Shown: positions 617 through 47,348 of the stretch, piece after piece | Layout: each line of letters opens with the position of its first letter | How positions within the stretch are numbered: position 1 is the first letter of the stretch | The notes under the pieces: generated by a model | What the model was told of the DNA's origin: nothing | The model's database searches: none | The model's input: only the letters and a program-made list of their open reading frames with translations | Position numbers and translations under genes: made by a program | From: an uncultured Christensenella sp. | GTDB taxonomy: Bacteria; Bacillota; Clostridia; Christensenellales; UBA1242 | DNA: 64,000 nt | NCBI GenBank assembly: GCA_964434145.1 | Contig: CAYSUG010000002.1 | Coordinates: 1,063-65,062, forward strand | Reading direction: 5' to 3'

Positions 617-617
617 A

Positions 618-19383: not shown

Positions 19384-22300
19384 CTACCATTTGAATACAG
19401 GATCTTTCAGTTTATAAACAGAACTATTAGACCACGTACCACATTTACACTTAATAGTATATTCTGGTTTACTACTATAATGTCCAGATTCTTTGTTTTC
19501 ACCTGCGGTAATATAATCATAATAATTGCAATAACAACTATCGCTATGATGTGCACTACTGCAATTTAATTCCTTCTTATAGCAACTAGTCCCATGTTTA
19601 TGACCTTCTTCCGAATTATTGCAATTTAATACATCTTTATAACAACTATCATTATGGGCATGACCAGTGCTTCCACATACTAAGGTAGTTGAATGCTTAG
19701 TAGCACCACTATCACCATCTGTTGTTCTTTCGTAATAATGGTATGAGCCCAAAACAGTAATTGTATATGTGTGCGAATTTCCGTCTAATGTTAAATCTAT
19801 CGCCGCACCGACATCTACCACGACACCCGTATCATTTCCCTCGTATCCTTTCACCTTTACCTTGTTAGAATATGTTGTTGAGTTACTATTATTAACAGTA
19901 AATGTTATTCCACTTACCGCTCCAAAATTAACTGCATCATTATTAGCATTATTTTCTATATTATCTAGAGTTGGGGTACTAGCAGTACTAGATATTATAT
20001 CTCTTACACTACTAAAGGTTATGCTGAATACACTTGCTGCACCACTAGTATCTGTGTTATTCTCTACAACCAATTTCACTCTAATCCTTGGATTATAGAT
20101 GATATCAGTATGATTGTCATCCTTTCCAGTTATAGTATGTGTTGTACTGCTGCTATTATCTGTAATAGTCGTTCCACTCATAGCATTACTACTGATGTAT
20201 CCTACTATACCGGCAGCAAAGCCGCTAGACGATGTAACATTACCACTATTGGATGCTGTAATGGATACACTACCACCACCATTCATTGTAGACAGTCCTA
20301 CTATTCCACCAGCTTTTTCCGTGGCAGATATTGCACCGCTATTGGTCGTGGCAGATATTGCACCGCTATTGGTCGTGGCTGTAGTTGTGTTTGTATTAGT
20401 ATCAGTATAAGAACAAATCTTATTAGCACCAAACGCACCAGCTATACCACCAGCATTCTTTGCTGAGATGGTACCTGTAGTAGTATTGGTACAACCTTCT
20501 ATACCCATAGTATCCCAAGCATATACAATCTCTCCATCTTCATAAACTGAATTATTGAGCATAGAACCAACTATGCCACCAGCGTATGTGCTTCCAGTAA
20601 TTGCACCACTATTGGTACATAGTCGTATTCCGCCAACAGTCACGTAACCAACGATTCCACCAGCGAACTCTGCTTGTTTTTCATTATCAGTTATTGAACT
20701 ACCAGACACTTCCTTTGTTACATTGATATCTGCAGTATTTGTACAATTACTTATATATCTGCCATTCAATTGCCCAACTATTCCACCGGTATATGACGGT
20801 TTTGTTTCTTCCGAATCTGCTATTGAGTTTCCATTAGCATCTACTCTATGCAAGAAAATTGTCTTACTAACTATTTTACCAGATATGTTATCACACTTCT
20901 CTATAATAGCACATCTTGCTACACCTACTATACCACCAGCACCAGATGCTGCTTGTGCCAATGTCCCATCAAGAGAAGTAACATTATAACCATTAGTATG
21001 ACCAACACCATTTATTATACTATTGTTCTCAAAGTTAGTAATGTATGCAATTATATAGTCTTTTTTCTCATCCTGATACCATGGGTCATTACCAGTACTA
21101 GTACCTACGTCTATTCTACCTACAACACCGCCAACACTTGCACCTTGCATAGTTACATTGCCAGCTAATTGCTGCCTGCCAGTCGTCGGATTACCTCTTG
21201 CATCAACATTAGTACCAATAATTTTCAGTAATACACCATCTTCACCAATTGTGTCTAAGCTAGTATTACTATAAGAATCATCGTTTTCGTTTATCAATCC
21301 ATCTCCACTAGTATCGTCTTTTTCTATTCTGACAACACCGACCAATCCGCCAGCAGCACCAGCATAAGTTGAAGAAGATATTGTCAAGGCAGATGTATTA
21401 ACATTGCGGTTGTTTTGTAAGATTGAAGTTCCATAGCTATTACCCTTCATAAACATAGCACCAACTATTCCGCCAGAATAGGTTCCAACAATACTAGTAG
21501 CAGAGTTGGTACATCCATTAATATCACCTATTATGAATCGTCCTACTATTCCACCTGCAATACCGCTAGTAGATTGGCCTATTATATTAGCAGTATTATC
21601 ACAACCAATAATACCTACTGTATCCCATGCGTACAATCGTCCACTCGCATTATCATTGGCTAGTTTGTTACTAGCACCGCCTGCTATACCACCTATATAA
21701 CGTTGACTATCCTTAGTAAGTTTAATTTCACCATTGTTAGTACATTCCTTTAGTCCACAAGGTATACCTAATAATGATTGACCAATTATTCCACCAATTG
21801 CACACGCTGTAGACGATTCTATGTTTGCATGATTAGTACAGTCGCTAACCAACCTACCATTCATAATACCAGCTATTCCACCAATATTAGAACCTAATGT
21901 CCCATTCATATTATAAGCACTTCCGCCAGTAATACTACTAGAGTGATTATCACAATTAGTAATATAGCCGAAGTTCATATTACCAGCTATGCCGCCAGCA
22001 CAGCTAGCACCATAAATAGTATAATAGTTATCAAAGTTAGTAATATATGCGAATACATAGTTTTGTTGTAGCGTTGTATTTGGCTCGGTAGCATCTACCT
22101 TACCAACAACTCCACCTGCATATGTTGCAGAGATTGTATAAAATTCTGTTGCTGACTTCTTACCTATTACTTGCTTTGTAGTAGAATCTGTTGTATCTTT
22201 GTCTACTCCAATGAATTGGATTATACCATCTGTATTTTCTATATCAGAATTAGCAATTACAGTATTCGTATAATCTTTATCTATCACGCCTTCGCCTAGG

Positions 22301-25300: not shown

Positions 25301-28300
25301 GTAGTAGCAACTCCGAACAATCCACCAATATTTGCTGTATTCACATTTGCAATTGTGAATTCATTTAGAGAGATTTTAACTTTCTGAATAGCAGCACCAC
25401 TGCCTACTACACCAGCAATTGCACCAACATACATTTCACCATGTTTATTAGTATTGCCTCTAATTGTGATTTTGATATCCGTTGCATTTATTGCCGTAGT
25501 AGTACCTATAGCTCCAGCTGCTGCATTTCCTGCAATCACGCCATATCTATATTGATTGCCGTCAACATACTCAGTTGCAGTATCAGTTACTACTACACCA
25601 TTCAATGTCATGTTATTGATAGAAGATGATGCATTGCTCATATATCCTATCACACCAGCGACATTCTGTCCACCGTCGACTGTTATAGTATTCAATTTTC
25701 CGCCACTAATAGACACATCACCGCTGTCTCTACCTACAACACCACCAGTATTACCTGACGCTTTGTTGTATAGGTTGATCCTTGTAATATCACAGCCAGA
25801 CATAGTTAATTTGCCTAGACTGTATGCCACAATACCACCCATATTACTTGCATTAGCAGTCAGTGAGATAGATGCAGCAACCTGTGTACCACCAGCTGGG
25901 GTTGCTGTAGCACCACTAATAACATCCACATTATCGAATTTGGTCTCGCCATTGTTATTTACCACACCCACCAGCAAGGATGCAGTATCGACTGTCAATG
26001 TGCTTGTACCTATAGCACCAATATTACCCATGTATTTTACTGTAAAGTTCTCTAGACTATTACCACCATTTAACACACCAAATAATCCATAATTAGATCC
26101 GTCCAATGTTACGATATTGGTTGTGCTAGGTATTGTAATATTATAGTTATTTCCTACCACATTTCCTTTGAATGGGAAGTTGGTAGAGCCAAATGGATTC
26201 AAGCTAGGTACACTTATCTCAAAATCATTTGCAATATACAAGTTGAAGTTATCTGAATTAGAATAATTAGCAGATACATCCTCAATTAATTGATGAGTAT
26301 TGGTATATGTCCCGCCAGTTCTCATACTCTGTAGCTTCTGAGCAGTCAGATATTCTAATTCACTAGTAATCTTGTATGCACCAGACTGGTATGACAATTT
26401 ATCCTCTGGGATTGCAAATAGGATGATATTATCACCACTCCATACTGAGGAATCAGATACATTACCTACATATGCTCCATTGTTCTTAGCATTTGTAGAC
26501 ACTATGCTTGCACCTTCACTAGGTGTATAAGCATTTGCACCACTATCGCTCTCGGCCTCTAGGATATAACCACCTGATATGATTCCTACGATGCCGTTGC
26601 CGTTAGTTATTGTGCCAGTATTCCTAACACCTTGTACTAAGATACTATCTGCAGCATAGCCTACAATACCACCTACATTACTTGCTGTAGTTACATCTAT
26701 TGCAACTCCATTGATAACCAATTTAGTATAGTTATATTTGTATTCACCAGGAATAGTTGTATCTAGATTATATGCACCAACTACACCGCCAACATTGCTG
26801 CCATTTCCTATCTCGATTGCTTTAGCATTCTTCAGCCAGATGTTATATGTTGTATACCATGCCTTATTAGCATCGTCGACTTCTATAACAGCATCTACCA
26901 GACCATATATTCTTACATTGTTAGCATTACCGACCATGCCACCCACACTGTTACCATTGGTCAATATTATTGAACCATTGGTCAATGTCAAGATATAGTC
27001 GTATGCTTGAGTGCTCTGATTATCTGATGCCCTTCTTAGACTAGACTCACCCTTATCATATGTCGTAGTTTCTCCAGACACAACATCTGTTAATGTTGAA
27101 TTATTAATAACAATATTTGATGAGATAACATTTGGAATATAATCTTCAAACACATCATTCAAAGCCTTATCGTACTGGGATGTAATCACTACATTATTAG
27201 CATCACCTACTAGTCCCGCTACATTGGATACATTGCTAGAAGTGCTAGCAATTTTAGTATTCTCAGACACTCTTGATAGGTAGATATTGCCGCTAGATGC
27301 CTTAGCACTACCAATCAATCCACCTACATTAGTAATAGCGTTATTAGCCGAAACACGTGTTCCACCATTATCGTACTCTTTGACTACATCAGCTTTGATT
27401 TGTACAACTATGTCGTTATTGGTTGTTGGATCTGAATCTACATATCCTACACTCATATTGTATAGCAATACATCCTTGGTTGACTCTATGCGACCTATTA
27501 GACCACCTATATTGGATGCAGTGTAGTTATCTGCAGTGCCACCCGTAATCTCATAGTTATATGTTATTTCTGTCTGTGCCGTTATGTTCTTCAATATTGG
27601 TTTATTAGAAGTAGCCAGATACAATCCACCTATTGCACCACCTATATTGCTGCCCGCGTCGGCATCAATTGTACCGTCTGCAGACAAGTTGTATAGATTG
27701 ACATTATTTGTAGAAATATCCATCAATGCTACAGATGATAAAGTTACACCATTGTACTCTGCATAACCAGCTATTCCGCCTATATATCCACCATTTATAT
27801 ATTTATTAATATCAGTAGATACAACCGGATAACTGATATTAATATTGCTAGATATATTGGTCATAGACGTATTGTATGCATAGCCGATCAATCCACCTAC
27901 ATACTTGCTGCCGTCTATGGTCTCTATTACCGTACCTTCGCCAATATTCAAGTTGCTAATATTAGCATTATCTGCCAGACCAATTAGACCAGAGTACATA
28001 TTCAGAATATTCTTCTTCTCCGCCCATTCTCTGTATACAAATTCTTCTCTCTCTGCATTAACAGACAGATAGTACGACATGAAGGATACAACCTTGATAT
28101 TACTGAAACTAGAGATGTCATCTGCTATTCCATTGTCATTAAAGTCAGCAGCCTTAATCGTGCCCTTGAATGGACGATATGTTTGTCCTTTTACTACCCC
28201 AGTCTCATAGTTGGTTGTTATTCCAGTATGATTTACTGTATTGTTATTAACATCTTTCTTGGTTAATACATCATAATCCGCATGACCTATAGCTACCCAT

Positions 28301-40300: not shown

Positions 40301-43300
40301 CCTACTACAATCGTGTTACTTGGTAGATCTTGATTTACTTCATATCCTTGAGTAGGAGTACCGCCTATAACATCGTATGTCTTCATCGTAACGCTGTTAA
40401 AATGCCTTACCTCTGTAGACTCTAATACCTGAGGAATCATAGTATAGTTCATCTCTAGATATCCGATGCTCTCTACGGCTACCTCTTTGTCCTCTATCAT
40501 GTTGGACAAGAATGTTATCGTATAATTTTCTTCACTAACACAATCATACCTGTCATCCAATAACACTTCTATCTGGAAGTTATATGTCACATATCCTTCG
40601 TTAGACCTATCAATAGAAATTAACCTTAATTGATATTTGTCGAACACTGCATAGAAATTGTCTATATCCTTAGACACCTCGTATAGATATATATCATTGA
40701 ATAACACATTCCTAGAACCTTTTAGATAGAATGCAAAGCCGCTGCCTCCTAATTTGCTATCAATCTTTGTTAACCTATTACCACATCCCAAAACCTCCAT
40801 TTGCTTGTTGCCACTGGAGATATAGAAATATAGACTACTATCTTCATCATCTGTAGTTAGGGTTACACTGAATATACTTGCTTCTTTTGGAGTACCCTCT
40901 GCAGTTGTATCCAGAGATGTCAATCCGCTAGTCCCCTTGACAATGTCCAGCTCTATGCTATCACCCAAGCCTTTTTTGAAATCTGCAGCGTCCACCTTCT
41001 TGAATTTTCCTTCGGCTACACGGCTATAGAATTTCTGCAATACAACTTTGTCAGTCATAGCACCGCTAGACGTAGAGTATATATATGGCACCGCGAATAA
41101 CTTAATTCCTTCCACCTCTAATAATGCGGAGATATAGCAGGAGTCTGCATTGTCAATATCTACATATACTAGATACTCATTACTTCCGTCTGAATTCTTC
41201 ATATATTGATATGCTAATTCATTGATATTGAAATATTTCGAGTAATTGGTAGCTATATAGTCAGTTACGTCACCAGTCACAACATGATATATTCCACCAG
41301 CCGCATTCAGCATAAATATCCTCATACCAACCTTGGCACTAGCATTCTCTATCAGCTGTATATTAGGATATAGTTTTGTTAGAATCGAGTTAGTATTAGC
41401 GTCATTGAAGACTGAATTGATGCTATAAGAAAGCTTAATAGAGGCATTCTTGACAATCGTCATCTTCTCACTACTACCTTGCGCCAATGATTTGATATCA
41501 AAATCACTAACTACTCTATTTATTTGGATATATAGATTTACTACTAATTCTTTGTTATATATATTGGTCAGCGTTATGTGCGCCAATCCGTCACTAATAG
41601 CCTCTAATTGTAAGCCATTAACACCTTGGGACAATATAACATATCCCATACTGCCAGTATCCAAGGTTGCCATCATACTACTCTCTGCTATGAACTTTGG
41701 CAACATATTGATTGTTACCAATTCATCCATAGTATGAGTGTTTAGAGACTTGAACGTCTCCTTTGCGACATCAGAGAAAATCTCCTCTGTATAGCTAATC
41801 ACTCCATCACCATCTAGGTCGTTGCTGCTTAGTTCATACATAGATACAGCAATGTAATAATCTGTCGTACCTATCTCTACATCATAGATATTATCACCCA
41901 TTCCAGGCTTGGTCAGCTCAACGCCAGATGGCGGAATATCTATAGTTAGACGAATAGGATTATTACTATTAAACCCTCTCTCATCTACAACAAAAATGCA
42001 AGATTCTGAAGTATTACCATCCTTGTATTGATAGTATGCATATACCTCTGTTGTATATTGTTTTATATTATTAAAACCTTTATCATCCATATCCGCAACA
42101 TCTATTGTATAGATACCAGAAATAGGAACTTTAGAGTAACTATGTGTATCACCACATACATTGTAATACACACTAGATGTATTATCGCTATTAGCCAACA
42201 TTGTATTGTCTATCACAACACCGCTTGGCACATTAATATTCAACTTAGCAAAGCCATATTCTCCAGTATTAGAATTCTGTTCATATTTACCAACCATTAC
42301 ACCAATATTACCGCTAGATCCACTTGTATTACTCTCATAATACACAATATCACCATAATATTCGCCTGTATTATCTACAAATGTTAGCTCACCATTCATC
42401 TCAGCATTGATGTAAGAATATGCAGAGTTATACTGTCCCGCACCATGATTTACTCCAATAACACCGCCTAGGTTGTACTGACCAATGATAGCACTATTCA
42501 TGAAAGAATACGCCTCGCCTTGGTCTAAGAACTGAACCTTGTTATATGCTACCTCTCCATTAGTATCATTATATCCAGCAATACCACCTATCGATTGCTC
42601 ACCCACCAGTGTAGGTAGAGACTTTGTGTTTTCAATTGTGCCATAGTTTACACCAACAACACCACCAATGTTTGTATTGCCGAATATAATCGCCTTAGCC
42701 ACGACATCAGACATGGTCACACCATCGCCTAATATTCCAACAACGCCACCAATATTCTGACCATAGAAATTGCCAACTTTGTTATATTGCTCTGGGTTGA
42801 TCACAGCAACAACATCTGCATTAGCATACTTGGTCGTAACACTATTGTCTCTATCACTATACACTATCTTACTGGTAGCACCTTGTTCTTCTTCTACACC
42901 ACCAAACAATCCACCGATTGCTGATATTCCAGTCGTGTTGCCATGTATAACCACATACACTCTAGAATCGGTATTAATAACACCACCAGATACATTGACA
43001 TTCTTCAGCGTCTTAACATATCCAGCGACGCCACCTATGTACATATCTACAGAATTGGTCGCATCGACCTTGATTCCATAAGACGCTGCCTTTGTCGCAC
43101 TGTCACTATATCTTCCAGCTATCTGAACCAACTTAGAACTATCTATCTGGGATACATTGTTGCCATCATTCACTACAATTCCACTAATCTGACAACTATC
43201 TGCCATTCCCACCAAGGCACCTACGTATATGCCATTTCCTATACTGTTGCTATTGACATCTACATCTATATTAACATTATTTATTGCAATGTCACTGAAT

Positions 43301-46300
43301 TTTGCATTCTTGGCAAAGGCAAATATACCCACTCCACACGACTGACCGTCTTCTAATGACACACTAGACTTATGCACAAAATTATTAATACTGTGTACAA
43401 CTACACCACCGTCCACCAACAGCTTTGCACCACTAATAGCACCAGTAAATGGATTGCTCTCACTTCCTATAGGAACAAATCCGCCATCCAGATTGATATC
43501 CGAGGTCAACACATAGTTAGAACCTAGATTATTATTAATGTCCTGCAATTGCTTCTGATTGCGTACACTGTATGGATTGCCTACACCGTCCTCTACTATT
43601 ATGTTGAACTTTGTCGACACCTTGTACACATTAGCAGCAATCTGACTACTCTTTGCACTCAATAATACTACGTAATTAGGACTAGCATAACCCACTGATG
43701 ATGGACTTCTTAACTCTAACAACTTAATCGTCACGCTCTGATTTACTTCGTCAACCTCTACAGCAAAGCTATTAGAGTCTTGGCTTATCACAATTGACTT
43801 GTTAACATACTCGTCCAGATAATTTTCTGGCAAATCCAGCCTGTAATTAAATGTCTTTCTTGTATTCTCAGTCTCCTTCATCACATAATTGCCACTAACA
43901 TTGTCTACTTCATAATCCACACCTACAACAAAATCTCTAAGATCGAAGGCAACTTTGCTATTATTAAGAATTGGCACAATGCCAGATATTCTCATATTTC
44001 TCTGAACTGTAAGGAAAGAACTCTTGGTCAAAGTAACTTTATACTCACTGTTATTGATATGGTTATATGTTGCATTAACTACAGCATCCACTTGGATATA
44101 TATCCTTGCCTCTGTGTTATCCACTAACAGATTAGACGACTTTGTATAATCCACAAATATGGCTATATTCTGGCCATCCCCTTCCTTGAAGAATATATAT
44201 AGTTTATAATCCCAAGCATTATCACCCAGAGTATAATATGTATCCTGATACTCCTTGGCATTAGGCAACAATCCCACTATTGTAGCATTTTGTATCTTGC
44301 CAACAGTCTTGCTGCCATTCATTTCTGATACCACAACTAGACCACTATCATCAACACTTGGCTGTAAGGCCCACGTAAAATTGCTGTTAGAACCCACACT
44401 AATTATCCAATTAACCCCTGATGTCAAAGGTTTTTTATTGGTAATATCAGTCAGCGAATACGTTGCCACACCTTTTTCCTGGAACTCGGATTTTGTTCCA
44501 AATGTATTAAGAGTGTCCTTAGTAAATATCATATTCTTGGTAGAATCCAGACTAATCTGTCTAGTTGGAGAAGGAGTTTTGATATTGATAACAAACAACA
44601 CTTCTCCATGCTCCACATCTGTCCAAGACGCAATATCCCTGCTATGATTATCTCTTTTTGCTACAAAGCCTTTGACCGTAATCTCCAGCCTTACTTCACC
44701 TACAGCCTTAATCTCTAGTACATAATCGCTATCAAATTTTGCCAATGCCTCATTGGAGGTTTTGACACCAACATTCATATCTTTTGGCAATTCTATAAAT
44801 GAATATGTTTTAGTAACGGTATTATTAATATCATAATTCAGATTAAATGTCTGAGTATCACCCACCAACGCTTCCAAATTCACAATTGTTGTATTAATAC
44901 CATTATTATCAATCTTGGTTGCATCATAAGGCTCAATTTTGGTCGCATTTGCCGTACCCTCTTTTGCATCGCTACCCAGCGTCAAATATGGTTTGCCCGG
45001 CAATTCATAATACACCAATAGATAGAAGCTACATTTCTCTCCATTAGGAGCAACCAATTCTACCCTACATTCTCCCAAGTTTCCATCATAGAACAATATA
45101 TTCAGCATCGGTGCACAAGTATCAGCTACTACACTACCATTCACTTCCTCATATTTCTTATCAGACACGAACGCATATGACACATTTGAGCCTTTTTCAT
45201 TATGCTTTATTACACTATTTCTAGACACATCGGTTATATTAACCTGGATATCCAGTTTGTATAACTCAACAGGATTTACACTTACAGCATTATAATCATA
45301 TACTATATCACTATCAGCGCCATCACTTAAGAAGTTCTTATAATCACTAATAGCTCCGCCATTCCATGCCGCAAGACTATCTAGAGGGATATTTAGATAA
45401 TTCAACCCTGCACCAACACCTGCAACATACAGATTATCGTCAGAATATGGCACATACATCTTGTTACCATCACTTGTATTCCAGCCAATATTAGCCGAGA
45501 CATAATTAACCTTGATATCTTGAGAGGTCAGTACATATCCACTACTACCCACACTACATTCATATCTAAGATATATATCCTCTAGATATTCCGTCTTATA
45601 CGATTCATGAGTCGTATCTAACGACACAACTACAACAGACATAGACTTAATATTATCTAATCCACCATTAGCAGTAGCAGACGAGCCAGACACCTTGAAT
45701 TTCAAAAATTTTGCCTCACTTTCAGCCCCATTCTGCTTAATTATCGCACGTATTGAATATTCACTATTCAACAATTCATTATCTACACTACTATACTCTG
45801 TAGATACTATTTTTGCTAGCAACTGTATTCCACCAATATATCCACTGTATTGCTTGTATATATTGACACTATTATTAATCAACCTTTCTTCCGAATTTAC
45901 CTTCTCATACACTTCTATCTCGTCTGGATATTCACACACCTCTAACACGATTCTCACCCTTACTCCATCGAAAAACTGGGTATATTCGTCGTAGAATATT
46001 CTGAAATCCAAATCATAGCTTCTACTAATAGACGTCGTATGAGTAATATTATATGCAGCTCCGTCTTCGGTTAGATCACACCTAATAGAAGATATTGTAT
46101 CTACCTCTGACTGCACATTATACTGCCCGCTGCCTTTTATAGCCGACATATACTTTGTTGTACCATTTTCTTGTACAGCAAACATTCCACCAACATTGCT
46201 ATTAGTTAATCCATAACCAAATTCCACATTGGCACTTCTGTATCTAACGTCCACTTTATTTGATGTGTTATTTGCTAGCAGCAGCTTGAATGTAGCAACA

Positions 46301-47286
46301 CCGTCTATCACACCTTCACTTTGTAGCAATTGTCTAACTTCTGTACCACCAATAGCGTATTTGTTTGCCACTACTATATCAGACGCCTTTATCTCATCCA
46401 ATGTCACAACACTACAAGATTTAGTTATCACACCGCCGTCTACCTTCATAGCCCTAGCAGATAACACGAATCTGCCTGGAGTATATACAGTATCTTCTAC
46501 CTTCAACACCCCATTCTGAATAGACAACACCCTGTATGTTTGTCCCGCATCTTCATCTTCATAGCTTAGGGTCACAACACCAGAATTATTAGTAATTATG
46601 TAATTATCCTCCTTTAGAGCATCAATATTAGCACCCTCTAAGAAGTTCCTAATTCCATCTTCATCCGCATCGGCTTCATCCAAATATAATTCCACGCTCC
46701 TCTGAGTCGTATCACTAGGCAGAAATTGTATATATTTGGAGGTTTTCGCCTTCTCATACAGGATATTTTCTTGACCTTTTATTACAGGAACAACCGTCGA
46801 TACGAAATTAAAATCTTCTATCGGTCTTAGTAGTTCTATAACAAACGTCTCACTGGCCATTCCTTCAACTGTCAATATATCGAAACTAAAATTCTCTATT
46901 CCATTCTTAGCCTCAAACAACGCCGATACAATCCTCTTGTTTCCGTCGCTAGAATAGCTGTACTCTACGAAATCTACATATCCTTCATATCCACCAGAAG
47001 GCTCAACAGTAGCCAGCCTCTCCTCACTACCAGTATACCCCTCTATCTCCACCTGGATATAAAAATAGTTGATACTAGGATTGACCGCCGTATCGCCGCT
47101 AATTATGACACGCCGCAAATCGCTATCTATATTGGTCTGCAAGTCAGAATATGCCACTAACCGAACATCCGATATCCTAAGATTATCATACGGCCCGCCA
47201 CCACAAGAGCACGCACTAATCAGCCCCGCAAATGCAACCATTATCGCACATAGTATTCTTCTTGTAATTTTGAAAAACTTTTCCAT
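19384..47286 (-). CDS. Giant (9,300 aa) lipoprotein-anchored GLUG-motif / beta-helix-repeat surface protein
   Basis: Uninterrupted 27,903-nt ORF with a purine-rich SD (AAGGAAGAAG). The N-terminus MEKFFKITRRILCAIMVAFAGLISAC is a signal peptide plus lipobox. Many dozens of xGG[LIVFM][VAFI]G turns are present (e.g. NVGGLVGYVSVGEITNS), typical of the Pfam GLUG motif. There are seven cap motifs of the type …DIDLxGxxWxPIGxxxxPFxG. Confidence 0.85.
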   Translation of the reverse strand: MEKFFKITRRILCAIMVAFAGLISACSCGGGPYDNLRISDVRLVAYSDLQTNIDSDLRRVIISGDTAVNPSINYFYIQVEIEGYTGSEERLATVEPSGGYEGYVDFVEYSYSSDGNKRIVSALFEAKNGIENFSFDILTVEGMASETFVIELLRPIEDFNFVSTVVPVIKGQENILYEKAKTSKYIQFLPSDTTQRSVELYLDEADADEDGIRNFLEGANIDALKEDNYIITNNSGVVTLSYEDEDAGQTYRVLSIQNGVLKVEDTVYTPGRFVLSARAMKVDGGVITKSCSVVTLDEIKASDIVVANKYAIGGTEVRQLLQSEGVIDGVATFKLLLANNTSNKVDVRYRSANVEFGYGLTNSNVGGMFAVQENGTTKYMSAIKGSGQYNVQSEVDTISSIRCDLTEDGAAYNITHTTSISRSYDLDFRIFYDEYTQFFDGVRVRIVLEVCEYPDEIEVYEKVNSEERLINNSVNIYKQYSGYIGGIQLLAKIVSTEYSSVDNELLNSEYSIRAIIKQNGAESEAKFLKFKVSGSSATANGGLDNIKSMSVVVVSLDTTHESYKTEYLEDIYLRYECSVGSSGYVLTSQDIKVNYVSANIGWNTSDGNKMYVPYSDDNLYVAGVGAGLNYLNIPLDSLAAWNGGAISDYKNFLSDGADSDIVYDYNAVSVNPVELYKLDIQVNITDVSRNSVIKHNEKGSNVSYAFVSDKKYEEVNGSVVADTCAPMLNILFYDGNLGECRVELVAPNGEKCSFYLLVYYELPGKPYLTLGSDAKEGTANATKIEPYDATKIDNNGINTTIVNLEALVGDTQTFNLNYDINNTVTKTYSFIELPKDMNVGVKTSNEALAKFDSDYVLEIKAVGEVRLEITVKGFVAKRDNHSRDIASWTDVEHGEVLFVINIKTPSPTRQISLDSTKNMIFTKDTLNTFGTKSEFQEKGVATYSLTDITNKKPLTSGVNWIISVGSNSNFTWALQPSVDDSGLVVVSEMNGSKTVGKIQNATIVGLLPNAKEYQDTYYTLGDNAWDYKLYIFFKEGDGQNIAIFVDYTKSSNLLVDNTEARIYIQVDAVVNATYNHINNSEYKVTLTKSSFLTVQRNMRISGIVPILNNSKVAFDLRDFVVGVDYEVDNVSGNYVMKETENTRKTFNYRLDLPENYLDEYVNKSIVISQDSNSFAVEVDEVNQSVTIKLLELRSPSSVGYASPNYVVLLSAKSSQIAANVYKVSTKFNIIVEDGVGNPYSVRNQKQLQDINNNLGSNYVLTSDINLDGGFVPIGSESNPFTGAISGAKLLVDGGVVVHSINNFVHKSSVSLEDGQSCGVGIFAFAKNAKFSDIAINNVNIDVDVNSNSIGNGIYVGALVGMADSCQISGIVVNDGNNVSQIDSSKLVQIAGRYSDSATKAASYGIKVDATNSVDMYIGGVAGYVKTLKNVNVSGGVINTDSRVYVVIHGNTTGISAIGGLFGGVEEEQGATSKIVYSDRDNSVTTKYANADVVAVINPEQYNKVGNFYGQNIGGVVGILGDGVTMSDVVAKAIIFGNTNIGGVVGVNYGTIENTKSLPTLVGEQSIGGIAGYNDTNGEVAYNKVQFLDQGEAYSFMNSAIIGQYNLGGVIGVNHGAGQYNSAYSYINAEMNGELTFVDNTGEYYGDIVYYESNTSGSSGNIGVMVGKYEQNSNTGEYGFAKLNINVPSGVVIDNTMLANSDNTSSVYYNVCGDTHSYSKVPISGIYTIDVADMDDKGFNNIKQYTTEVYAYYQYKDGNTSESCIFVVDERGFNSNNPIRLTIDIPPSGVELTKPGMGDNIYDVEIGTTDYYIAVSMYELSSNDLDGDGVISYTEEIFSDVAKETFKSLNTHTMDELVTINMLPKFIAESSMMATLDTGSMGYVILSQGVNGLQLEAISDGLAHITLTNIYNKELVVNLYIQINRVVSDFDIKSLAQGSSEKMTIVKNASIKLSYSINSVFNDANTNSILTKLYPNIQLIENASAKVGMRIFMLNAAGGIYHVVTGDVTDYIATNYSKYFNINELAYQYMKNSDGSNEYLVYVDIDNADSCYISALLEVEGIKLFAVPYIYSTSSGAMTDKVVLQKFYSRVAEGKFKKVDAADFKKGLGDSIELDIVKGTSGLTSLDTTAEGTPKEASIFSVTLTTDDEDSSLYFYISSGNKQMEVLGCGNRLTKIDSKLGGSGFAFYLKGSRNVLFNDIYLYEVSKDIDNFYAVFDKYQLRLISIDRSNEGYVTYNFQIEVLLDDRYDCVSEENYTITFLSNMIEDKEVAVESIGYLEMNYTMIPQVLESTEVRHFNSVTMKTYDVIGGTPTQGYEVNQDLPSNTIVVGYSGMLQVGIFPGYSNVDKVEITSSSVNGVYVEFEQLVEETILNSDEGLADKYVSRAFYSSYSGAVKEPGKITLDNVTNVYESAGDKTYDFAGIYYVKTYIGTLVNETSTYLITIKYYSDGVLLDERTDSFVLYPIIPPTVSLSINGSSNSPIAIGTDVAIDIETNDVWDSIEVQLGNTNSATHAVLNRLVYLNGSDKFTNTGIMDQLISKVLLKTSSSGMHRLSLPIVYDEDLVGSTVTLSITVKKMINNKVYRATSVIKMQLALYVVDSIGVVGVANGTFNGMFNQAYELKVNVNATYYDGKNYYRNNVTANDIEFIQSQIELLSARITSAGLGETGETATHSTKTWFVRESNGQYSNLSVKSYYSFVITDSVYSVTYMPESGANYITKNFGVLKFRNNILDTSDTILAQAVIEYSATDVHGESAGGKSVSGVNVYSVAAEQDDNGNYMGDSSAFRYTYSTEFSFNMQRLSNEENPTPIYTADQLEDMVEGVSYILMEDIEVENWTPINTAITSLDGNGYVIRINSFAALDSATTTAGLFGTVDAETILKNIIIELPANPLQTTQNMDVDTVESSVNSDITVDIQNATEFNFGVVAGVNNGIITNAIVINNADTYRYERDSRLLAEDELSREDFAIRLQKYYYYRVEQYITDYPNYDDRTLTQIRVQSTLNNTSATEIKVGGLVAVNNGHITNSAVEGITINAPFYVGGFVCDNSGKISSSYFKNGNVINYKGNEAALSGTAGFVVNNTGTIAFSYVEGANTNYERELIDYVVADTATAVTIQSIQENNGIGDEELVNYIGYYYGYADKPNAIFKLRNYGNAIYSNKQSAGFVYNNNGNINNSYSNIVVVGASTSGFVYYNQTSGVIDSTYSLSSVIAGDIQHSPFAARNINGVSVNAGTLSNIYYLSVSMEDYITLEETNSTIISSNNIILDQHGYDALTTQTEKDMYTKSPSGVDSDGNTIYRYIKTSYTDSYATTIVDGLAKGVYDFGDYATFNTFTFNEDKSMNSEKVTGAIWWIPTTQYTDTTSTEGQTVAKYFKEGVYNVGTPQLVAANLRTMSLRYGNFIDPLAKDDSIDDILETLRDEMAIAMAGDIVTYSNDFIQSAGTNITDNYTTNQIKTIYAYVYLSTAYDNFANKESINGHENVLYGKLQKLRDAGADFKNAEFKPTFSEDEYATIAAATEVGAIQDAIKSKVNSYLKNTADWAAMSSQIGTMTSLMIEQINIVNQVADDAESAYSYSNILYNGGGVDIIYGNSVLNPYLVDSEDDFNIYGKQLTDKENYTNLTQLDKSIRLTRDITFGELDKAVKTYDVTFYGDMDGNGMSMSNIKLSAATDNSGNAIESIGLFQSLGKHDEDGEIYYATIRNLTLNIEYIRANAIQRVGGLAGSIDYARIYNVTINRASNSSVISGANVVGGLAGFIGGDTIIANVTSNINVTANYLHSVSGIGTNLFDATNSNASRVNTTIGTEVYGIVGEKFTLLTKDNISSDSEENPSTAHQFNLYIPGSDNYSKIAYAGSIAGIINVDAVGGDIGDDDLEPVAAVTGAKFVGANVITGEVVGGLFGFAGCNVTITNSDVIVTSGMQLDSVAIAGGMVGHMLGTIDKSYVQHANQSALDSVLYSNVSKASTTANNYYNYFTGGTTSVSEVTDYYGGNAHYIGGLVGLSHGAVINNAYNRVDVANINSKYAGGIIGISIGASLDDVYTTASVFAYRAYGGTIGIQTKIVDIEYDAAGNKEKMLENAYNKDQANANQIYHIYNQMQYIDVFYEANANTGEVQSVASDMGDTLDISSLNSMNLWKQAHKNANRANYGGAVAPRAYIGSFIGFAVSNSDGWISSGAVEERVVEENIYLMQAYKYNDLSGKDSETEFISEVGNAKSNYLSGLKGNKYIAAGTYYLATKTESNKNIGGNIVFNSGTITNRLQDSDIYSTDEIIKILRQIFGTIDEYPTDASSAEENRYYYNITNTAFEIKYKSSVVTTTYTIATFSHEVINTVSYINNEIYQGYSGDVRINATAGAEIYRFSRIQKYGSLRTIKEFVEGKYILNETAKMNFAYYKDSTVKQSGDKAMPESNNVVPNVYETWRNDVWYGVEMSSTDAGNGGERVDKAKYVFPTRRFMTYKKVIYVYEFQDLLDNTEKYPDATYILMQDIQVNNSKLPLNNKTNNPFTGILKSNRLYESGGNYYANYTIYGLNTEGTYDSTFGLFGYVDGAAFRGFKIAVDYVNITLRKENAAAGILFGRQKTNARVVVQDVSVVGRYQEGGVDTHRGIFQVTDAAYVGGLFGYGNNVQLVYNDTDNGGVEYATDNMSINVTKMSTDEIYVGGVGGYIKNEYTGTSIKDVTIKNTEINTSLVLDQTGEKAVNVGGLFGYAYGKNVVMSNCGVMVSNNDGDYNYEVTLANGSSFAIEKQPGINVYLAGEVNGNTIEHKIYVGGLVGKSEIRMINDDVAAAEPGTEPTSVNTTINVYNGLYEYKGVSDNKYVLTRPSGTYYSSNSNIAIGGAAGTIGYATTKEENIIDIISVNADITFHQAKEAKSGDIAYIGGAIGTIGATMDDTGVYGVSGISVSGKIATNITGAAKNLYTGGVFGYLNKGGNVDNCTSEVEITTTLNDGSSGVYVGGYVGQLEDNEVNTEADTTIGGDNSINATINVNVAAGSTASDIYVGGFGGKVNGVEGEKLNLNTIVADANINLAGGNGSTLQGSYISGFAGLVTEVNLHQIATTGSIKAESETLNITKSYFGGVVGKGDNFAMTESFSNMTIAIYTRLDDAATTDKKENEINTVGNNVGGLVGYVSVGEITNSGVVAAAAVTPPEVGITDSYSAVFIDYDLANNNPENASTIDSNDNVNSNASFIGGIIGQLDNHSNDMTLFVIDRVYSISNVPAITNYDYIKIYDENNTIGGILGQSTFGTYMDGTETKSYPRYTTSAFGGAYYNAELMPYSNYYGMAMGSDEMLFGVEDASGNTPTFASLYLTEFIWTQTNAYSYPLLAWEDEIQADGSRQKPMVYSSAAAAAIASGAEPTPEPDTTGLSYIVASTTPNGIEAKSNIFYFNKATIGSSGTLFNSVDKGSIVVGVHSATDPITIATTNEGIIVSTYDKGNNITVAGTNEGVIHAYIASETGVNNNYIVYNKNESGTISYTNTGLISNSIISVDSLPSTIQNVSLSKIVYSSGTITESSSIEDKGIYDTYLRQKDNSTTTDDESQNIAFVDSNGEAKVFSSIAYSSTTAYATDISNFIVSTDNTFTLDFDNVWTMFVVDGLSGEDAKERNNGAPMLRLELKVSKGKWYYRDIDLYDYLYNYSGVDTSTLYNRDIPYTDSDVYDQNKSMYGDYVWVYNIPTVSDGDPEYEYKYELDAGGANQIVGLASINEDIIPAGQLLVAEGKITTITIKTANELAWVAYMVNTGQYDFDGVSIVIGDDIDLAGKMWTPIGTKVHPFKGTFNGGGYNQNSGSMKIIYTISNINVINSDVAGLFGYVTASSGATDTNMFNVSINKGLVIATNTITAGNPVGGSAGSLIGAVVSSGDAIDPITYNIDFVVTRKNDYDVVSFKADEFYNNNPDLSQYAIFSDGVAYKMSEIGGTAANTVTTKAFYVKKHDNGTAADNSDDYYQIVNTAAGVNMIAIEDSKGQTINDVSGDIVKNGGVERKFRIEQIGVECDIMKICDPADSKQNTLQVVGANVGGMVGYGSTGSNISIIRAENNAYVYSYTGVKNTAAVNYAGGIMGRAEGALAELSIIDNQGEVYGYYAGGILGYANEAVLIDNAYNSNGDNESRKDEVNITTYGNGKAGALIGYLNYDASQGQLESKGRYAIIEESYSSSGNTSLVGEYTTAGSINYNQVFKYVYVNSNNLECDGDEDTIDLNTNEQSVFGAISGTTYPTGKNNYLADETFYTEEDFKNFAWGSIWHRDGSNADYPVLMFSAGYWIDFATLPYTDSVTSGISTTDIFDGEIVEQEKQYYADNNNFYIERTSQLAWIARMTNVGYDFAGKTIVINGSLSFSGKIWVAIGHADYDVLTKKDVNNNTVNHTGITTNYETGVVKGQTYRPFKGTIKAADFNDNGIADDISSFSNIKVVSFMSYYLSVNAEREEFVYREWAEKKNILNMYSGLIGLADNANISNLNIGEGTVIETIDGSKYVGGLIGYAYNTSMTNISSNINISYPVVSTDINKYINGGYIGGIAGYAEYNGVTLSSVALMDISTNNVNLYNLSADGTIDADAGSNIGGAIGGLYLATSNKPILKNITAQTEITYNYEITGGTADNYTASNIGGLIGRIESTKDVLLYNMSVGYVDSDPTTNNDIVVQIKADVVKEYDNGGTRVSANNAITNVGGLIGSAKASSGNIYLSRVSENTKIASTSSNVSNVAGLVGDANNVVITSQYDKALNDVFEDYIPNVISSNIVINNSTLTDVVSGETTTYDKGESSLRRASDNQSTQAYDYILTLTNGSIILTNGNSVGGMVGNANNVRIYGLVDAVIEVDDANKAWYTTYNIWLKNAKAIEIGNGSNVGGVVGAYNLDTTIPGEYKYNYTKLVINGVAIDVTTASNVGGIVGYAADSILVQGVRNTGTITNGNGIVGIISGGYILEAESDSGANAYTPSEGASIVSTNAKNNGAYVGNVSDSSVWSGDNIILFAIPEDKLSYQSGAYKITSELEYLTAQKLQSMRTGGTYTNTHQLIEDVSANYSNSDNFNLYIANDFEISVPSLNPFGSTNFPFKGNVVGNNYNITIPSTTNIVTLDGSNYGLFGVLNGGNSLENFTVKYMGNIGAIGTSTLTVDTASLLVGVVNNNGETKFDNVDVISGATATPAGGTQVAASISLTANASNMGGIVAYSLGKLTMSGCDITRINLYNKASGNTGGVVGRDSGDVSISGGKLNTITVDGGQNVAGVIGYMSNASSSINNMTLNGVVVTDTATEYVDGNQYRYGVIAGNAAAGAIGTTTAINATDIKITIRGNTNKHGEMYVGAIAGVVGSGAAIQKVKISLNEFTIANVNTANIGGLFGVATTTTGNTTNLQSNTVSVDTITASGIKTIVMGGVVSVITKDNEELLAAANTIQKLSEPKFSMAATGDNTTTYIGGIAGKVEAGSEIDDIVSVVGTATGVNNINVTTTSGEVYAGGLFGSMSGATTSATVVASGVNITNNSGSESYVGGVVGHTSSHTDATSGTTQDVAISNITVSNTSINGNFNNNHVGGLLGYVTGTTTLSGTLNISQDNSATTDVETIAITTAATSGGIVGSVVGTLNIDDDPTLGTITISNSTNAGGLFGEVSGEVDASGINAISNPMTISGTNAGVVAGNVSGSMNFGTSGSELLTITGTNMEITGTNNAGMAFGVIGEGVQVNSTTAKTVNNIVITNGVVNGNGNVGGLAGSNSGDTTLVDISVDSTNISATDIANLGGILGSVTTGTSVTINNATIKDIEINGSNKETSSGGVVGSVVGTLNIDDDTTLGTITISGSTNAGGLFGSVAGTVTATAIREIDNTMIISGTNAGAVAGSVSETMNFGTSGSESLTITGTDMVITGTNNAGMAFGTISGSAKVNSTTANTINKITITNGVVKGNGNVGGLAGSLVGTGINVTLDNINVSDAEIANESDGNAGGLIGIVAANQALNMANIAIINSTISGGNAAGGVAGLVNGTLNLSETIDIGDDSATTDVETITITNAESAGGVVGSVVGTLNINDTPTLGKIDISDSTNAGGLFGEVTGTVTATAIREINNTMTISGANAGAVAGSMRGSMNFGTSGSRSLTITSTRTASGDSITITGTNNAGIAFGVIGEDVQVNTSDDNTINNINITNGTVNGNGNVGGMAGNMADGYTLTSVIISGTIINGTPIANAASSASAAVAMLATAASAETNVGGFVGYAVGLIIDNTNKLNKNGENNVKINIEDINSNTLPTNVGGYVGKAGSVTISNASNANVEIAIPSNTSGYIYVTNLGGFVGCIDTTANASVSITDSTNSVALGNVNSVTNAGGIVGTIAMRSGATAVFSGNVNNANITAKNAAGGILGEGVIDKDYTNTVIANSDIENTDGIIQFIGVDKDTTDSTTKQVIGKKSATEFYTISATYAGGVVGKVDATEPNTTLQQNYVFAYITNFDNYYTIYGASCAGGIAGNMNFGYITNCDNHSSSITGGSAYNMNGTLGSNIGGIAGIMNGRLVSDCTNHANIESSTACAIGGIIGQSLLGIPCGLKECTNNGEIKLTKDSQRYIGGIAGGASNKLANDNASGRLYAWDTVGIIGCDNTANIIGQSTSGIAGGIVGRFIIGDINGCTNSATSIVGTYSGGIVGAMFMKGNSYGTSILQNNRNVNTSALTISSSTYAGAAGGLVGVVRIEKDDTSGDGLINENDDSYSNTSLDTIGEDGVLLKIIGTNVDARGNPTTGRQQLAGNVTMQGASVGGVVGRIDVGTSTGNDPWYQDEKKDYIIAYITNFENNSIINGVGHTNGYNVTSLDGTLAQAASGAGGIVGVARCAIIEKCDNISGKIVSKTIFLHRVDANGNSIADSEETKPSYTGGIVGQLNGRYISNCTNTADINVTKEVSGSSITDNEKQAEFAGGIVGYVTVGGIRLCTNSGAITGSTYAGGIVGSMLNNSVYEDGEIVYAWDTMGIEGCTNTTTGTISAKNAGGIAGAFGANKICSYTDTNTNTTTATTNSGAISATTNSGAISATEKAGGIVGLSTMNGGGSVSITASNSGNVTSSSGFAAGIVGYISSNAMSGTTITDNSSSTTHTITGKDDNHTDIIYNPRIRVKLVVENNTDTSGAASVFSITFSSVRDIISSTASTPTLDNIENNANNDAVNFGAVSGITFTVNNSNSTTYSNKVKVKGYEGNDTGVVVDVGAAIDLTLDGNSHTYTITVLGSYHYYERTTDGDSGATKHSTTLVCGSTGHAHNDSCYKDVLNCNNSEEGHKHGTSCYKKELNCSSAHHSDSCYCNYYDYITAGENKESGHYSSKPEYTIKCKCGTWSNSSVYKLKDPVFKW
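19387..19695 (-). other. C-terminal Cys/His-rich tail of the giant protein (three H-x-H-x2/3-SCY-x4-6-C knuckles)
   Basis: GHAHNDSCYKDVLNC / GHKHGTSCYKKELNC / AHHSDSCYCNYYDY, then KCKCGTW. Contains 11 Cys and 9 His in the last 103 aa. Confidence 0.6.
20321..20374 (-). repeat. Perfect in-frame 27-bp tandem duplication inside the giant gene
   Basis: GTGGCAGATATTGCACCGCTATTGGTC occurs twice back to back (20321-20347 and 20348-20374). This encodes …TTNSGAISA TTNSGAISA…. Confidence 0.9.
22895..24700 (-). repeat. Three near-identical tandem coding modules (about 594- and 711-nt period) inside the giant gene
   Basis: The protein block SGG[IV]VGSVVGTLNI[DN]D…TNAGGLFG…MNFGTSGS…ITGTNNAG[MI]AFG…NGNGNVGG[LM]AG occurs three times. 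The DNA copies are alignable by eye at about 23,231, 23,938 and 24,531. Confidence 0.85.
47209..47286 (-). other. Lipoprotein signal peptide of the giant protein (lipobox I-S-A-C, Cys26)
   Basis: Basic n-region (KITRR), hydrophobic core ILCAIMVAFAGL, then ISAC. The Cys26 codon is at 47209-47211. Confidence 0.7.
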
Positions 47287-47348
47287 TTTCTTCTTCCTTA
47301 GTTGTATTTTTTCTCAAAATAAAAAAATTATTATAATTGTATATATGC

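Follow-up and report, generated by a model that had tools for sequence, protein, structure and literature searches.

A 27.9-kb gene predicted to encode a 990-kDa lipid-anchored surface protein with GLUG-type beta-helix modules in a spore-forming, gut-type Clostridia bacterium

Organization of the locus

The window, the whole 64-kb stretch of DNA that we analysed, carries on its reverse strand a giant gene that reads for 27.9 kb without a stop codon (Table 1). The product computed from its translation has a mass of 990,217 Da (~990 kDa) and a pI of 4.44, in line with the preliminary description of the locus as a single uninterrupted open reading frame (ORF) for a protein of ~1 MDa. At the base composition of the window, 5.7% of codons should be stops, and 9,300 open codons would arise by chance with a probability of ~1e-237. 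That description had also placed chance ORFs here at rarely more than ~150 codons, a figure that does not hold, as antisense ORFs within the giant gene reach 370 aa. The GC content of the gene is similar to that of the rest of the window.

Table 1 Features of the giant gene and its flanks, with predicted protein regions (positions in the window; family HMM, profile built from external family members)
Feature	Position	Strand	Evidence or remark
Terminator hairpin of upstream ypeB, setting the giant gene apart from spoIIR-sleB-ypeB	47411..47448	-	17-pair stem, then T-run
Sigma-70-type promoter of giant gene, TTGACG-18-TATAAT	47349..47378	-	Consensus scan, 11/12 matches
5′ leader with Shine-Dalgarno AAGGAAG ~7-8 nt before ATG	47287..47348	-	Read from sequence
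Giant gene ORF	19384..47286	-	9,300 codons, ATG start, no internal stop
Predicted lipoprotein signal peptide, aa 1-26, lipobox L-I-S-A-C, Cys26	47209..47286	-	G+LPP and PROSITE-like lipobox patterns
N-terminal unique region, aa 27-1246	43549..47208	-	No recognisable domain; 48% identity to SIG400
M1, GLUG-type beta-helix with N-cap, aa 1247-1720	42127..43548	-	Family HMM 47.0 + 15.7 bits; AF2 model
Unique region U2, aa 1721-2814	38845..42126	-	No family, PDB or repeat signal; 54% identity to SIG400
M2, weak divergent cap from aa 2820; aa 2815-3278	37453..38844	-	Family HMM 13.7 + 6.1 bits
Unique region U3, aa 3279-3611	36454..37452	-	No matches
M3, GLUG-type, aa 3612-4125	34912..36453	-	Family HMM 31.5 + 24.7 bits; six GGxxG turns
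M4, GLUG-type, aa 4459-5294	31405..33912	-	Family HMM 47.7 bits at cap + four coil matches
M5, GLUG-type, aa 5715-6230	28597..30144	-	Family HMM 117.4 bits
M6, GLUG-type, aa 6292-6959	26410..28413	-	Family HMM 67.6 bits; holds best sub-threshold Pfam GLUG match
M7, GLUG-type, aa 6999-9089, one cap then ~2,100 aa of coils	20020..26292	-	14 consecutive family-HMM matches
C-terminal Cys/His-rich tail, aa 9200-9300	19387..19689	-	Read from sequence
Intrinsic terminator of giant gene	19323..19356	-	15-pair stem, then T-run
Promoter-like site of next gene downstream	19209..19181		Consensus scan

The signals that flank the gene agree with the stand-alone transcription unit proposed earlier. A promoter, a Shine-Dalgarno sequence and the gene's own terminator frame the ORF, and the ypeB terminator closes off the upstream genes, with promoters and terminators called by consensus scans only. 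Wall-related genes of the Amidase_3 and SH3_3 families lie nearby. On the 3′ side, beyond the strong terminator, are two unannotated paralogous genes for ~355-aa cytoplasmic HExxH proteins, and a block of phage packaging and head genes follows 7-19 kb downstream on the same strand.

Long DNA repeats inside the gene are confined to three copies of ~600-700 nt at 22889-24673. Since such repeats are few and only ~80% identical, repeat collapse during assembly is unlikely. A Logan contig from SRR14307658 matches the genes upstream of the giant gene at 100% identity.

An orthologue, free of stops in the part seen, is found at the same spoIIR-sleB-ypeB-adjacent position in the metagenome-assembled genome (MAG) Clostridiales bacterium SIG400, a species whose YpeB is 70% identical. 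The two proteins are colinear, with 49% identity over 3,270 aa; this comparison covers all the residues visible in SIG400. The region between the giant gene and ypeB is 81.5% identical, compared with 71.7% for the ypeB coding DNA. Within it, both promoter hexamers and their 18-nt spacing are kept, the leader is nearly invariant and the ypeB terminator hairpin is altered in its loop alone. The conserved leader matches no Rfam family. The intact ORF, its negligible chance probability, the colinear orthologue and the conserved promoter and leader together establish that the giant gene is real, stand-alone and apparently monocistronic.

A predicted lipid anchor at the N-terminus

The N-terminus, MEKFFKITRRILCAIMVAFAGLISAC, shows a positively charged n-region, a hydrophobic h-region and a lipobox of the form [LVI][ASTVI][GAS]C. 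It fits the Gram-positive lipoprotein pattern G+LPP with Cys26 as the candidate lipidation site, and the SIG400 orthologue (LSAC) also satisfies the lipobox patterns. By pattern matching, we therefore predict a lipoprotein of the SPase II type. Along the 9,300 aa, this signal peptide is the sole hydrophobic segment. The C-terminus lacks such a segment, no LPxT[GAN] motif occurs, and Pfam searches with halves of the protein and with 930-aa tiles returned no SLH or CW_binding match, so the lipobox is the only visible anchor, as had been suggested. The lgt and lsp genes are absent from the 64-kb window. A lipobox is rare among the relatives described below, occurring in ~3 of the 229 inspected.

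Seven capped modules separated by unique regions

Our map divides the protein into seven modules (M1-M7), intervening unique regions and a short C-terminal tail. The preliminary description envisaged ~8,000 aa packed with GLUG turns. Instead, we see seven discrete capped modules that account for ~48% of residues by alignment, or ~60% when whole modules are counted. We count 61 exact copies of the motif GG[LIVFM][VAFI]G; they are clustered, and long stretches such as aa 1650-3700 and 5230-6000 have none. M5 has the best-conserved cap (TIKTANELAWVAYMVNTG...DIDL...WTPIGT...PFKGTF...GLFG), and M2, with its divergent cap, is the stretch best conserved with SIG400 (59-69% identity). M7 contains ~40 GGxxG turns at a spacing of 27-50 aa. 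Self-similarity analysis resolves within it three copies of a 198-243-aa unit with 45-55% identity, the DNA repeats being ~80% identical.

For ~3,700 aa (~40% of the chain), including the N-terminal ~1,220 aa, the SIG400 orthologue is the only match, with no other relative detectable among 1.84 billion representative proteins. Residues 27-1246 have no match in Pfam, NCBIfam, PHROGs, the PDB or a word-index homologue search. Neither the N-terminal region nor U2 contains cryptic repeats detectable by sensitive BLAST or by hhalign of each profile against itself. The earlier reading of aa 1-1230 as serial beta-sandwich spacers thus gains no support from repeat, Pfam or PDB searches. This unassigned ~40% of the protein could hide enzymatic or other functions.

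The Cys/His-rich tail carries a motif of the H-x-H-x3-C-Y type repeated two to three times (GHAHNDSCYKDVLNC / GHKHGTSCYKKELNC / AHHSDSCYC). The tail has no Pfam or PDB match, and none of the 229 related proteins that we inspected has its motif.

Relationship to GLUG proteins and IgA1 proteases

Standard HMM libraries miss this divergent giant protein: searches of Pfam, NCBIfam and PHROGs with its halves and with 930-aa tiles gave nothing at threshold, and the Pfam search with the 4,700-aa halves gave no GLUG match. Among the tiles, the best score of the Pfam GLUG model (PF07581) is 18.1 bits (E 0.0035, ~aa 6459-6485), below the gathering cut-off of 20.5 bits, and the next is 9 bits. The Pfam scan proposed as a check on the GLUG and beta-helix assignment thus fails directly, as the beta-helix HMMs likewise stay below threshold. 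Sequence searches of the PDB yielded chance-level matches only, whether the query was either half of the protein, its last 210 aa or a two-sequence profile of aa 1-1246 or of aa 1721-2815. Word-index searches detected no homologue of aa 1-1250 or of aa 7351-8300, and JGI metagenome contigs, scanned twice with orthologue alignments that each provided two usable peptide patterns, returned no relative.

Relatives emerge from more exhaustive comparisons. A phmmer search recovers 888 weak relatives at E<=1e-3; the matches cluster on the module cap, chiefly that of M5. Among 50 of these matches that were scanned, 27 contain Pfam GLUG (best E 1.5e-40) and 7 contain Peptidase_M26_N. The scanned relatives also bear the surface-protein domains Big_2, Flg_new, SLH, dockerin and Por_Secre_tail, and some carry GH43, CBM_X2, dockerin or cohesin. 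A profile search added 80 further relatives, mostly PF07581 proteins, one of them named 'GLUG motif-containing protein'. In the reverse direction, the giant protein reaches 519.6 bits against an HMM made solely from external members, which aligns to 4,490 aa and marks the start of seven caps. The cap shared by GLUG proteins and the giant protein reads I.TA.ELA..A..VN.G..F.G.T..L..DIDL....WTPIG....PF.G.FDG.G..I.NL........GLFG, followed by coils with GG[ILV][VA]G turns.

Structural comparison points in the same direction for the one module of the seven that it covers. Our AF2 model of M1 (aa 1240-1665; pLDDT 72.7, pTM 0.78) is rich in beta-strands and has a helical cap; a model of M5 made from an alignment of internal paralogues only (pLDDT 32) was discarded. 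Folding and Foldseek comparison, another check proposed, bore out the assignment for M1. The best structural matches are the beta-helix domains of M26 IgA1 proteases (6XJA, 6XJB and 7JGJ from S. pneumoniae; 7UVK from G. haemolysans) and BACOVA_03286 (3N6Z). Entries 3n6z, 7uvk, 7uvl, 6xjb, 7jgj and 6xja all fall within the top 7 at probabilities of 0.89-1.0, with modest TM-scores (0.29-0.42), high rmsd and 13-15% identity. Generic beta-helices follow the IgA1-protease entries in the list. The sole PDB match of a coil-motif profile is the S. pneumoniae IgA1 protease (E 0.023).

Transitive homology, the external-member HMM and the M1 model support the view that a large part of the chain is a GLUG-type right-handed beta-helix, kin to the N-terminal domain of the M26 IgA1 proteases. 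The original GLUG/beta-helix identification therefore stands in substance by these indirect routes, whereas the direct Pfam models remain below threshold. Likeness to the IgA1 proteases is at the level of fold only. The giant protein lacks their M26 middle and C-terminal protease domains, G5 and LPXTG; HExxH occurs nowhere in its 9,300 aa, and the tiles match neither Peptidase_M26_N nor M26_C even at E<=10. In the IgA1 proteases, the beta-helix domain gates the substrate and has no catalytic role (PMC7695701).

GLUG-motif proteins (PF07581) are surface proteins of Firmicutes, Bacteroidota, Saccharibacteria, Spirochaetes and gut archaea; their function is unknown in the literature, possibly that of adhesins (PMC9723798). 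GLUG-type modules occur widely among microbes of the gut and the environment, but the literature on them is sparse: a full-text search turned up four papers naming the motif or domain. A typical relative has a 220-300-aa module, and the best 150 relatives have a median length of 860 aa and a maximum of 4,550 aa. The giant protein, unlike these, falls below the Pfam GLUG cut-off, comprises 9,300 aa with seven modules, one of them ~2,100 aa long, and has none of the partner domains (Big_2, SLH, dockerin and others) of its relatives. It thus appears as an extreme natural concatenation of GLUG-type modules, joined to an anchor that is rarely seen in the family.

A candidate surface fibre

We propose, with a probability of about 0.6, that the gene encodes a 990-kDa surface lipoprotein of a spore-forming Clostridia bacterium, and that this lipoprotein is no enzyme but serves as a fibrillar adhesin or surface fibre. 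The features of fibrillar adhesins that are present are the predicted lipobox anchor and the repetitive rod M1-M7; no known adhesive domain is detected in Pfam or NCBIfam. The protein would be exported through its predicted Sec/SPase-II-type signal and then lipidated at Cys26, which would fix its N-terminus on the outside of the cytoplasmic membrane. The first ~1,200 aa may cross the wall, and the serial beta-helix rods would stand out from the cell by tens of nanometres, forming a fibre or coat. If ~5,500 aa form coils of ~33 aa with a rise of 0.48 nm each, the rod would be ~80 nm long. Distal modules and the C-terminal tail would then be presented for binding to surfaces of the host, food particles or neighbouring cells. 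If expressed, such a protein would dominate the surface of its host cell, making it a candidate determinant of attachment in its habitat.

A bolder reading, which we regard as much less likely than not, takes the protein as the founding case of a class of Gram-positive mega-fibres, restricted to its clade, that are lipid-tethered and of 'multi-beta-helix' build. New folds with functions of their own, such as wall-spanning, ligand-binding or metal-dependent ones, would then lie in the ~3,700 aa that cannot be assigned (the linkers between modules, the Cys/His tail, aa 27-1246 and aa 1721-2814). The unusually conserved promoter and leader would reflect dedicated regulation of a gene that takes up ~1% of the coding capacity of a small genome.

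The beta-helical fold also raises the alternative, unlikely in our view, of a surface-tethered polysaccharide-active enzyme or array, some of whose modules cleave or modify host, diet or cell-wall glycans. Pectate lyases, polygalacturonases, tailspike depolymerases and alginate epimerases have a right-handed beta-helix as their catalytic fold; such enzymes fill the Foldseek lists below the IgA1-protease matches, and GH43, CBM_X2, dockerin or cohesin accompany the fold in some relatives. However, those structural matches have probabilities of only 0.01-0.18 and TM-scores <0.3, and the nearest solved relatives are non-catalytic domains. Pfam, NCBIfam and PHROGs reveal no catalytic family in the giant protein, whether glycoside hydrolase, lyase or other, and no Beta_helix family either.

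The position of the gene directly after spoIIR-sleB-ypeB, kept in two species, and the wall-related Amidase_3 and SH3_3 genes nearby might instead suggest a structural protein linked to sporulation, at the spore surface, in the exosporium or as an appendage. We consider this rather improbable, as a conserved terminator parts the gene from ypeB, its own promoter has -35/-10 elements of the housekeeping type, no spore-coat or exosporium family is detected and a lipobox signal suits a membrane-tethered vegetative surface protein.

It is more than doubtful that the protein is a contact-dependent effector or polymorphic-toxin-like fibre with the Cys/His tail, or an unrecognised C-terminal domain, as its active part. 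A very long beta-helical fibre that ends in a distinct ~100 aa with repeated H-x-H-x3-C-Y motifs would fit, as would the pair of paralogous genes downstream. Yet no toxin, pre-toxin or immunity family is detected, including in the last 930 aa; the downstream genes lie past a strong terminator, with a promoter-like site of their own and cytoplasmic products; and the predicted export route is that of a Sec-dependent lipoprotein, not T5SS, T6SS or T7SS.

We find it hardly credible that the gene is cargo of the adjacent prophage or of another mobile element and encodes, for instance, a giant protein involved in receptor binding or related to superinfection. The same-strand packaging and head block is close by and the fold is found in a few viral proteins, but the ypeB-adjacent position is kept in a species with a YpeB of only 70% identity, and the GC content is that of the rest of the window. 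There is no PHROG match, tblastn of aa 5715-6914 against 50,697 phage and 72,556 plasmid records found none, and neither did a scan of IMG/VR for the last 1,000 aa.

An assembly artefact or a decaying, unexpressed ORF is just as hard to credit: the sequence is probably metagenome-derived and giant repetitive genes are prone to misassembly, but the unbroken 27.9 kb, the few and diverged DNA repeats, the independent MAG with its colinear orthologue and conserved regulatory DNA, and the identical SRR14307658 contig across the upstream genes speak against it.

Place among giant surface proteins

The proposed surface fibre has a familiar counterpart in Ebh of S. aureus, a ~1.1-MDa protein that is built of FIVAR/GA helical repeats and anchored in the membrane at its C-terminus. 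Like fibrillar adhesins in general, Ebh is an acidic, repeat-rich rod of megadalton size that is exported by Sec and stands out from the wall. These traits would be common to Ebh and the giant protein, which differs by its beta-helix modules and its predicted N-terminal lipid anchor.

The preliminary description ranked the protein among the largest bacterial polypeptides; its size is indeed large, but it is no record, as bacterial proteins of 10,000-85,804 aa have been described, including proteins of 10,000-30,000 aa in Clostridia from gut metagenomes (bioRxiv 10.1101/2023.11.21.568195). Those giant Clostridia proteins come from the same class of bacteria and probably a similar habitat, and are presumed to bind surfaces. 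They are reported to be built of RCC1, Listeria-Bacteroides repeat, YG-repeat, dockerin and LRR units, none of which is detected in the protein described here. Most likely it is an unusual member of an already known class of giant surface proteins.

An uninterrupted gene for a 9,300-residue protein

The giant gene is a single ORF with an ATG start in the ORF listing of the window (19384..47286, minus strand), and its translation of 9,300 aa has zero internal stops, a computed mass of 990.2 kDa and a pI of 4.44. Because stops are expected in 5.7% of random codons at the base composition of the window, 9,300 open codons would arise by chance with a probability of about 1e-237. The GC content (0.37–0.40) and GC skew are like those of the adjoining genes. 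DNA repeats within the gene are few, including one 27-nt repeat in 2.3 copies, so repeat collapse is no serious worry; DNA-level repeat analysis also gives a unit of approximately 600–700 nt in three copies with about 80% identity. The preliminary description had proposed this single reading frame, with its own promoter and terminator: the frame is borne out, and both signals are present as predicted sites, identified by consensus matches (see table). An antisense ORF of 370 aa lies in the repeat-rich part of the gene (23573–24685, plus strand), along with several others of 159–197 aa, most likely a by-product of biased codon content on the sense strand.

Coordinates of predicted features (nucleotide positions refer to the window, aa to the giant protein)
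Feature	Position	Strand	Basis or context
Giant-gene promoter, TTGACG-18-TATAAT	47378..47349	-	consensus match
Upstream terminator hairpin	47448..47411	-	consensus match
Giant gene's own terminator hairpin	19356..19323	-	consensus match
Promoter-like site of next downstream gene	19209..19181	-	consensus match
M1	aa 1247-1720		family HMM
M2	aa 2815-3278		family HMM
M3	aa 3612-4125		family HMM
M4	aa 4459-5294		family HMM
M5	aa 5715-6230		family HMM
M6	aa 6292-6959		family HMM
M7 (~2,100 aa)	aa 6999-9089		family HMM
sigma70_r4 / phage transcription-regulator gene	12014-12559	-	prophage-like block
Large terminase	9704-11143	-	prophage-like block
P22-like portal	7187-9106	-	prophage-like block
Major head protein, phrog_14242	5346-6530	-	prophage-like block
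Virion structural protein	2828-4318	-	prophage-like block
DUF7934	618-1571	-	prophage-like block

Seven divergent GLUG-type modules

NCBIfam, PHROGs and PDB sequence searches gave no match to the protein, nor did Pfam with its 4,700-aa halves; with 930-aa tiles, the only relevant Pfam signals were GLUG (PF07581) at 18.1 and 9 bits, under the 20.5-bit cut-off. These standard libraries, returning nothing at threshold, are therefore blind to the protein. Self-comparison detects weak similarity (about 25%) among several blocks, stronger similarity (45–55%) inside aa 7350–8300 and none in aa 1–1200. The blocks share a recurring N-terminal cap (in M5, ...TANELAWVAYMVNTG...DIDL...WTPIGT..PFKGTF...GLFG....) followed by GG[ILV][VA]G turns.

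An exhaustive phmmer search with aa 5715–6914 against 1.84 billion representative proteins yielded 888 matches at E≤1e-3, 42 at E≤1e-10 and none at E≤1e-30 (best score 88 bits), with the cap as the aligned region in almost all. The library thus contains no close whole-protein homologue; its matches form a broad family with the module in common. Among 50 matches scanned, 27 pass Pfam GLUG (best E 1.5e-40) and seven pass Peptidase_M26_N. Partners of the module in these matches are Big_2, Flg_new, dockerin, SLH and Por_Secre_tail, domains characteristic of surface proteins. A profile search added 80 family members, most of which carry PF07581; one bears the name 'GLUG motif-containing protein'. 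The GLUG assignment of the preliminary description falls below the Pfam cut-off, yet a family HMM built from 31 of these outside proteins, the giant protein's own sequence being left out, matches the chain at 519.6 bits in 35 stretches. Matches beginning at profile position 24 or earlier mark cap starts at aa 1255, 2820, 3620, 4465, 5715, 6293 and 7013, and so define seven modules, M1–M7. At a domain i-E≤1e-3, 4,490 residues are aligned (48% of the protein), and whole modules cover about 60%.

The unassigned regions (aa 27–1246, 1721–2814 and 3279–3611, shorter linkers and the last ~210 aa) gave no sign of a known family, a PDB relative or repeats in searches that included two-sequence profiles with the orthologue from the MAG Clostridiales bacterium isolate SIG400. 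The serial beta-sandwich spacers that the preliminary description proposed for the first ~1,230 aa are thus conjecture. Together they make up approximately 3,700 aa, or about 40% of the protein, and match nothing beyond that orthologue, to which they are 48–54% identical where it is visible. The C-terminal ~100 aa (aa 9200–9300; window 19387–19689) hold 9 of the 49 cysteines in a Cys/His-rich tail of repeated GH.H..SCYK..LNC-like units. Pfam and PDB offer no match to this tail, and none of the 229 inspected relatives from the GLUG family has it; it may form a small tip that binds metal or is rich in disulfides.

Predicted fold

AlphaFold modelling of M5 from internal paralogues only gave a pLDDT of 32. 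For M1 (aa 1240–1665), an 85-row alignment of internal modules and family proteins from the profile search gave a pLDDT of 72.7 (mostly >90 in the first 130 residues) and a pTM of 0.78; the modelled chain runs from a short helix into many short strands. The first-ranked Foldseek match in the PDB is 3N6Z (BACOVA_03286, 'putative immunoglobulin A1 protease'; E 6.6e-4), and the top seven also include the IgA1 proteases 7UVK, 7UVL, 6XJB, 7JGJ and 6XJA (probability 0.89–1.0), with modest TM-scores of 0.29–0.42. Generic right-handed beta-helices (pectate lyases, tailspikes, AlgE and SRRP) follow at lower ranks with low probability. A profile of 65 coil motifs has a sole PDB match, the Streptococcus pneumoniae IgA1 protease (E 0.023). 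The region matched there is the enzyme's N-terminal beta-helix, a non-catalytic domain controlling access to the active site (PMC7695701). Unlike IgA1 proteases, the giant protein has neither HExxH nor the M26 protease domains.

Predicted export signal and a conserved locus

With Cys26 as the lipobox cysteine, the N-terminus, MEKFFKITRRILCAIMVAFAGLISAC followed by SCGGG, satisfies G+LPP, the lipoprotein pattern for Gram-positive bacteria, as well as a PROSITE-like lipobox rule; the SIG400 orthologue has ...CTLSAC followed by SCGGG. As this signal is the sole hydrophobic stretch, and neither an LPxTG motif nor SLH, choline-binding or other wall-binding families (Pfam) were detected, the predicted N-terminal lipid is the only visible anchor, in agreement with the preliminary description and on the strength of pattern matching.

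Upstream lie spoIIR, sleB and ypeB, which indicate a spore-forming Firmicute host. When one genome from each GTDB species was scanned with YpeB, one relative emerged, SIG400 (SVIC01000001.1; YpeB 70% identical), with the same upstream gene order. Directly after its ypeB, an ORF of at least 3,270 stop-free codons runs past the end of the 10-kb flank; its product aligns colinearly with aa 1–3340 of the giant protein at 49% identity (locally 34–69%). The ypeB–giant intergenic region (window 47287–47477; 11342–11528 of the SIG400 locus, L002) is 81.5% identical between the two species, compared with 71.7% for ypeB coding DNA and about 66% for alignable giant-gene DNA. The terminator stem, both promoter hexamers (-35 and -10) and their spacing, the A/T-rich 5′ leader of ~60 nt and the AAGGAAG Shine–Dalgarno sequence are kept. 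No Rfam family matches it, and the region could be a regulatory element not yet recognised.

Window 48674–51185 recurs at 100% identity in a Logan contig of run SRR14307658, and the same strain has therefore been sequenced independently. A 616-nt metagenome scaffold (L003; ENA ERZ28633416) codes for a peptide that shares 54% identity with aa 5965–6039, in a non-cap part of M5, and hints at further orthologues in fragmentary assemblies.

Proposed function

The best-supported reading, at a probability of roughly 60%, is that of a very long, acidic fibre or coat protein, tethered to the membrane and spanning the wall, which would present beta-helix surfaces and a distal tip for binding. It is favoured by Sec/lipobox export, the absence of a catalytic signature, a rod-forming fold occurring seven times and multi-domain surface-protein relatives; the scant literature describes GLUG as 'of unknown function' and possibly adhesive (PMC9723798). 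Assuming 5,500 aa, ~33 aa per coil (from the GGxxG spacings) and a rise of 0.48 nm per coil, we estimate a rod of about 80 nm.

With no catalytic signature in view, a glycan-active enzyme is unlikely. A spore component, in a host that carries spoIIR, sleB and ypeB, is improbable, and a toxin-delivery fibre very improbable. Prophage cargo would fit the phage block at ~600–12,560 of the window, but the ypeB-adjacent position is conserved in SIG400, and searches of PHROGs, of IMG/VR (C-terminal 1,000 aa) and of phage and plasmid records (aa 5715–6914) gave no match, leaving this origin only a slim chance. An artefactual gene is scarcely credible.

Giant surface proteins are known as a class, as are GLUG modules as an uncharacterised family. 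Clostridia proteins of 10,000–30,000 aa have been described from gut metagenomes (bioRxiv 10.1101/2023.11.21.568195), so the size, initially placed among the largest, is notable but not record-class. What is unusual is the concatenation of seven GLUG-type modules, one of ~2,100 aa; a predicted lipid anchor, apparent in approximately 3 of 229 relatives; module divergence so great that every curated model misses them; and ~3,700 aa conserved with the orthologue, where visible, yet matching nothing else.

Neighbouring genes

The prophage-like packaging and head block spans 600–12560 (minus strand). At the other end of the window, an 829-aa ORF (57160–59649, plus strand) has no Pfam match, and nearby ORFs (54639–55223, 56379–56990, 59792–60358 and 63224–63925) are likewise without assignment. 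Immediately downstream of the giant gene, two overlapping paralogous genes (17054–19166, minus strand) encode proteins of 355 and 358 aa with 24% mutual identity (E 5e-20) and an aligned HExxH (HECCH and HEGYH). Neither has a signal peptide or matches Pfam or PHROGs, and the pair could represent uncharacterised metallopeptidase-like proteins. The interval from the prophage block to the giant gene contains, beside an Amidase_3/endolysin-like gene (16235–16984), two plus-strand genes: 12910–15321, for a protein of 803 aa that has NHL repeats, SH3_3, a signal peptide and a C-terminal TM segment, and 11226–12017, for a 263-aa SH3_3 membrane protein.
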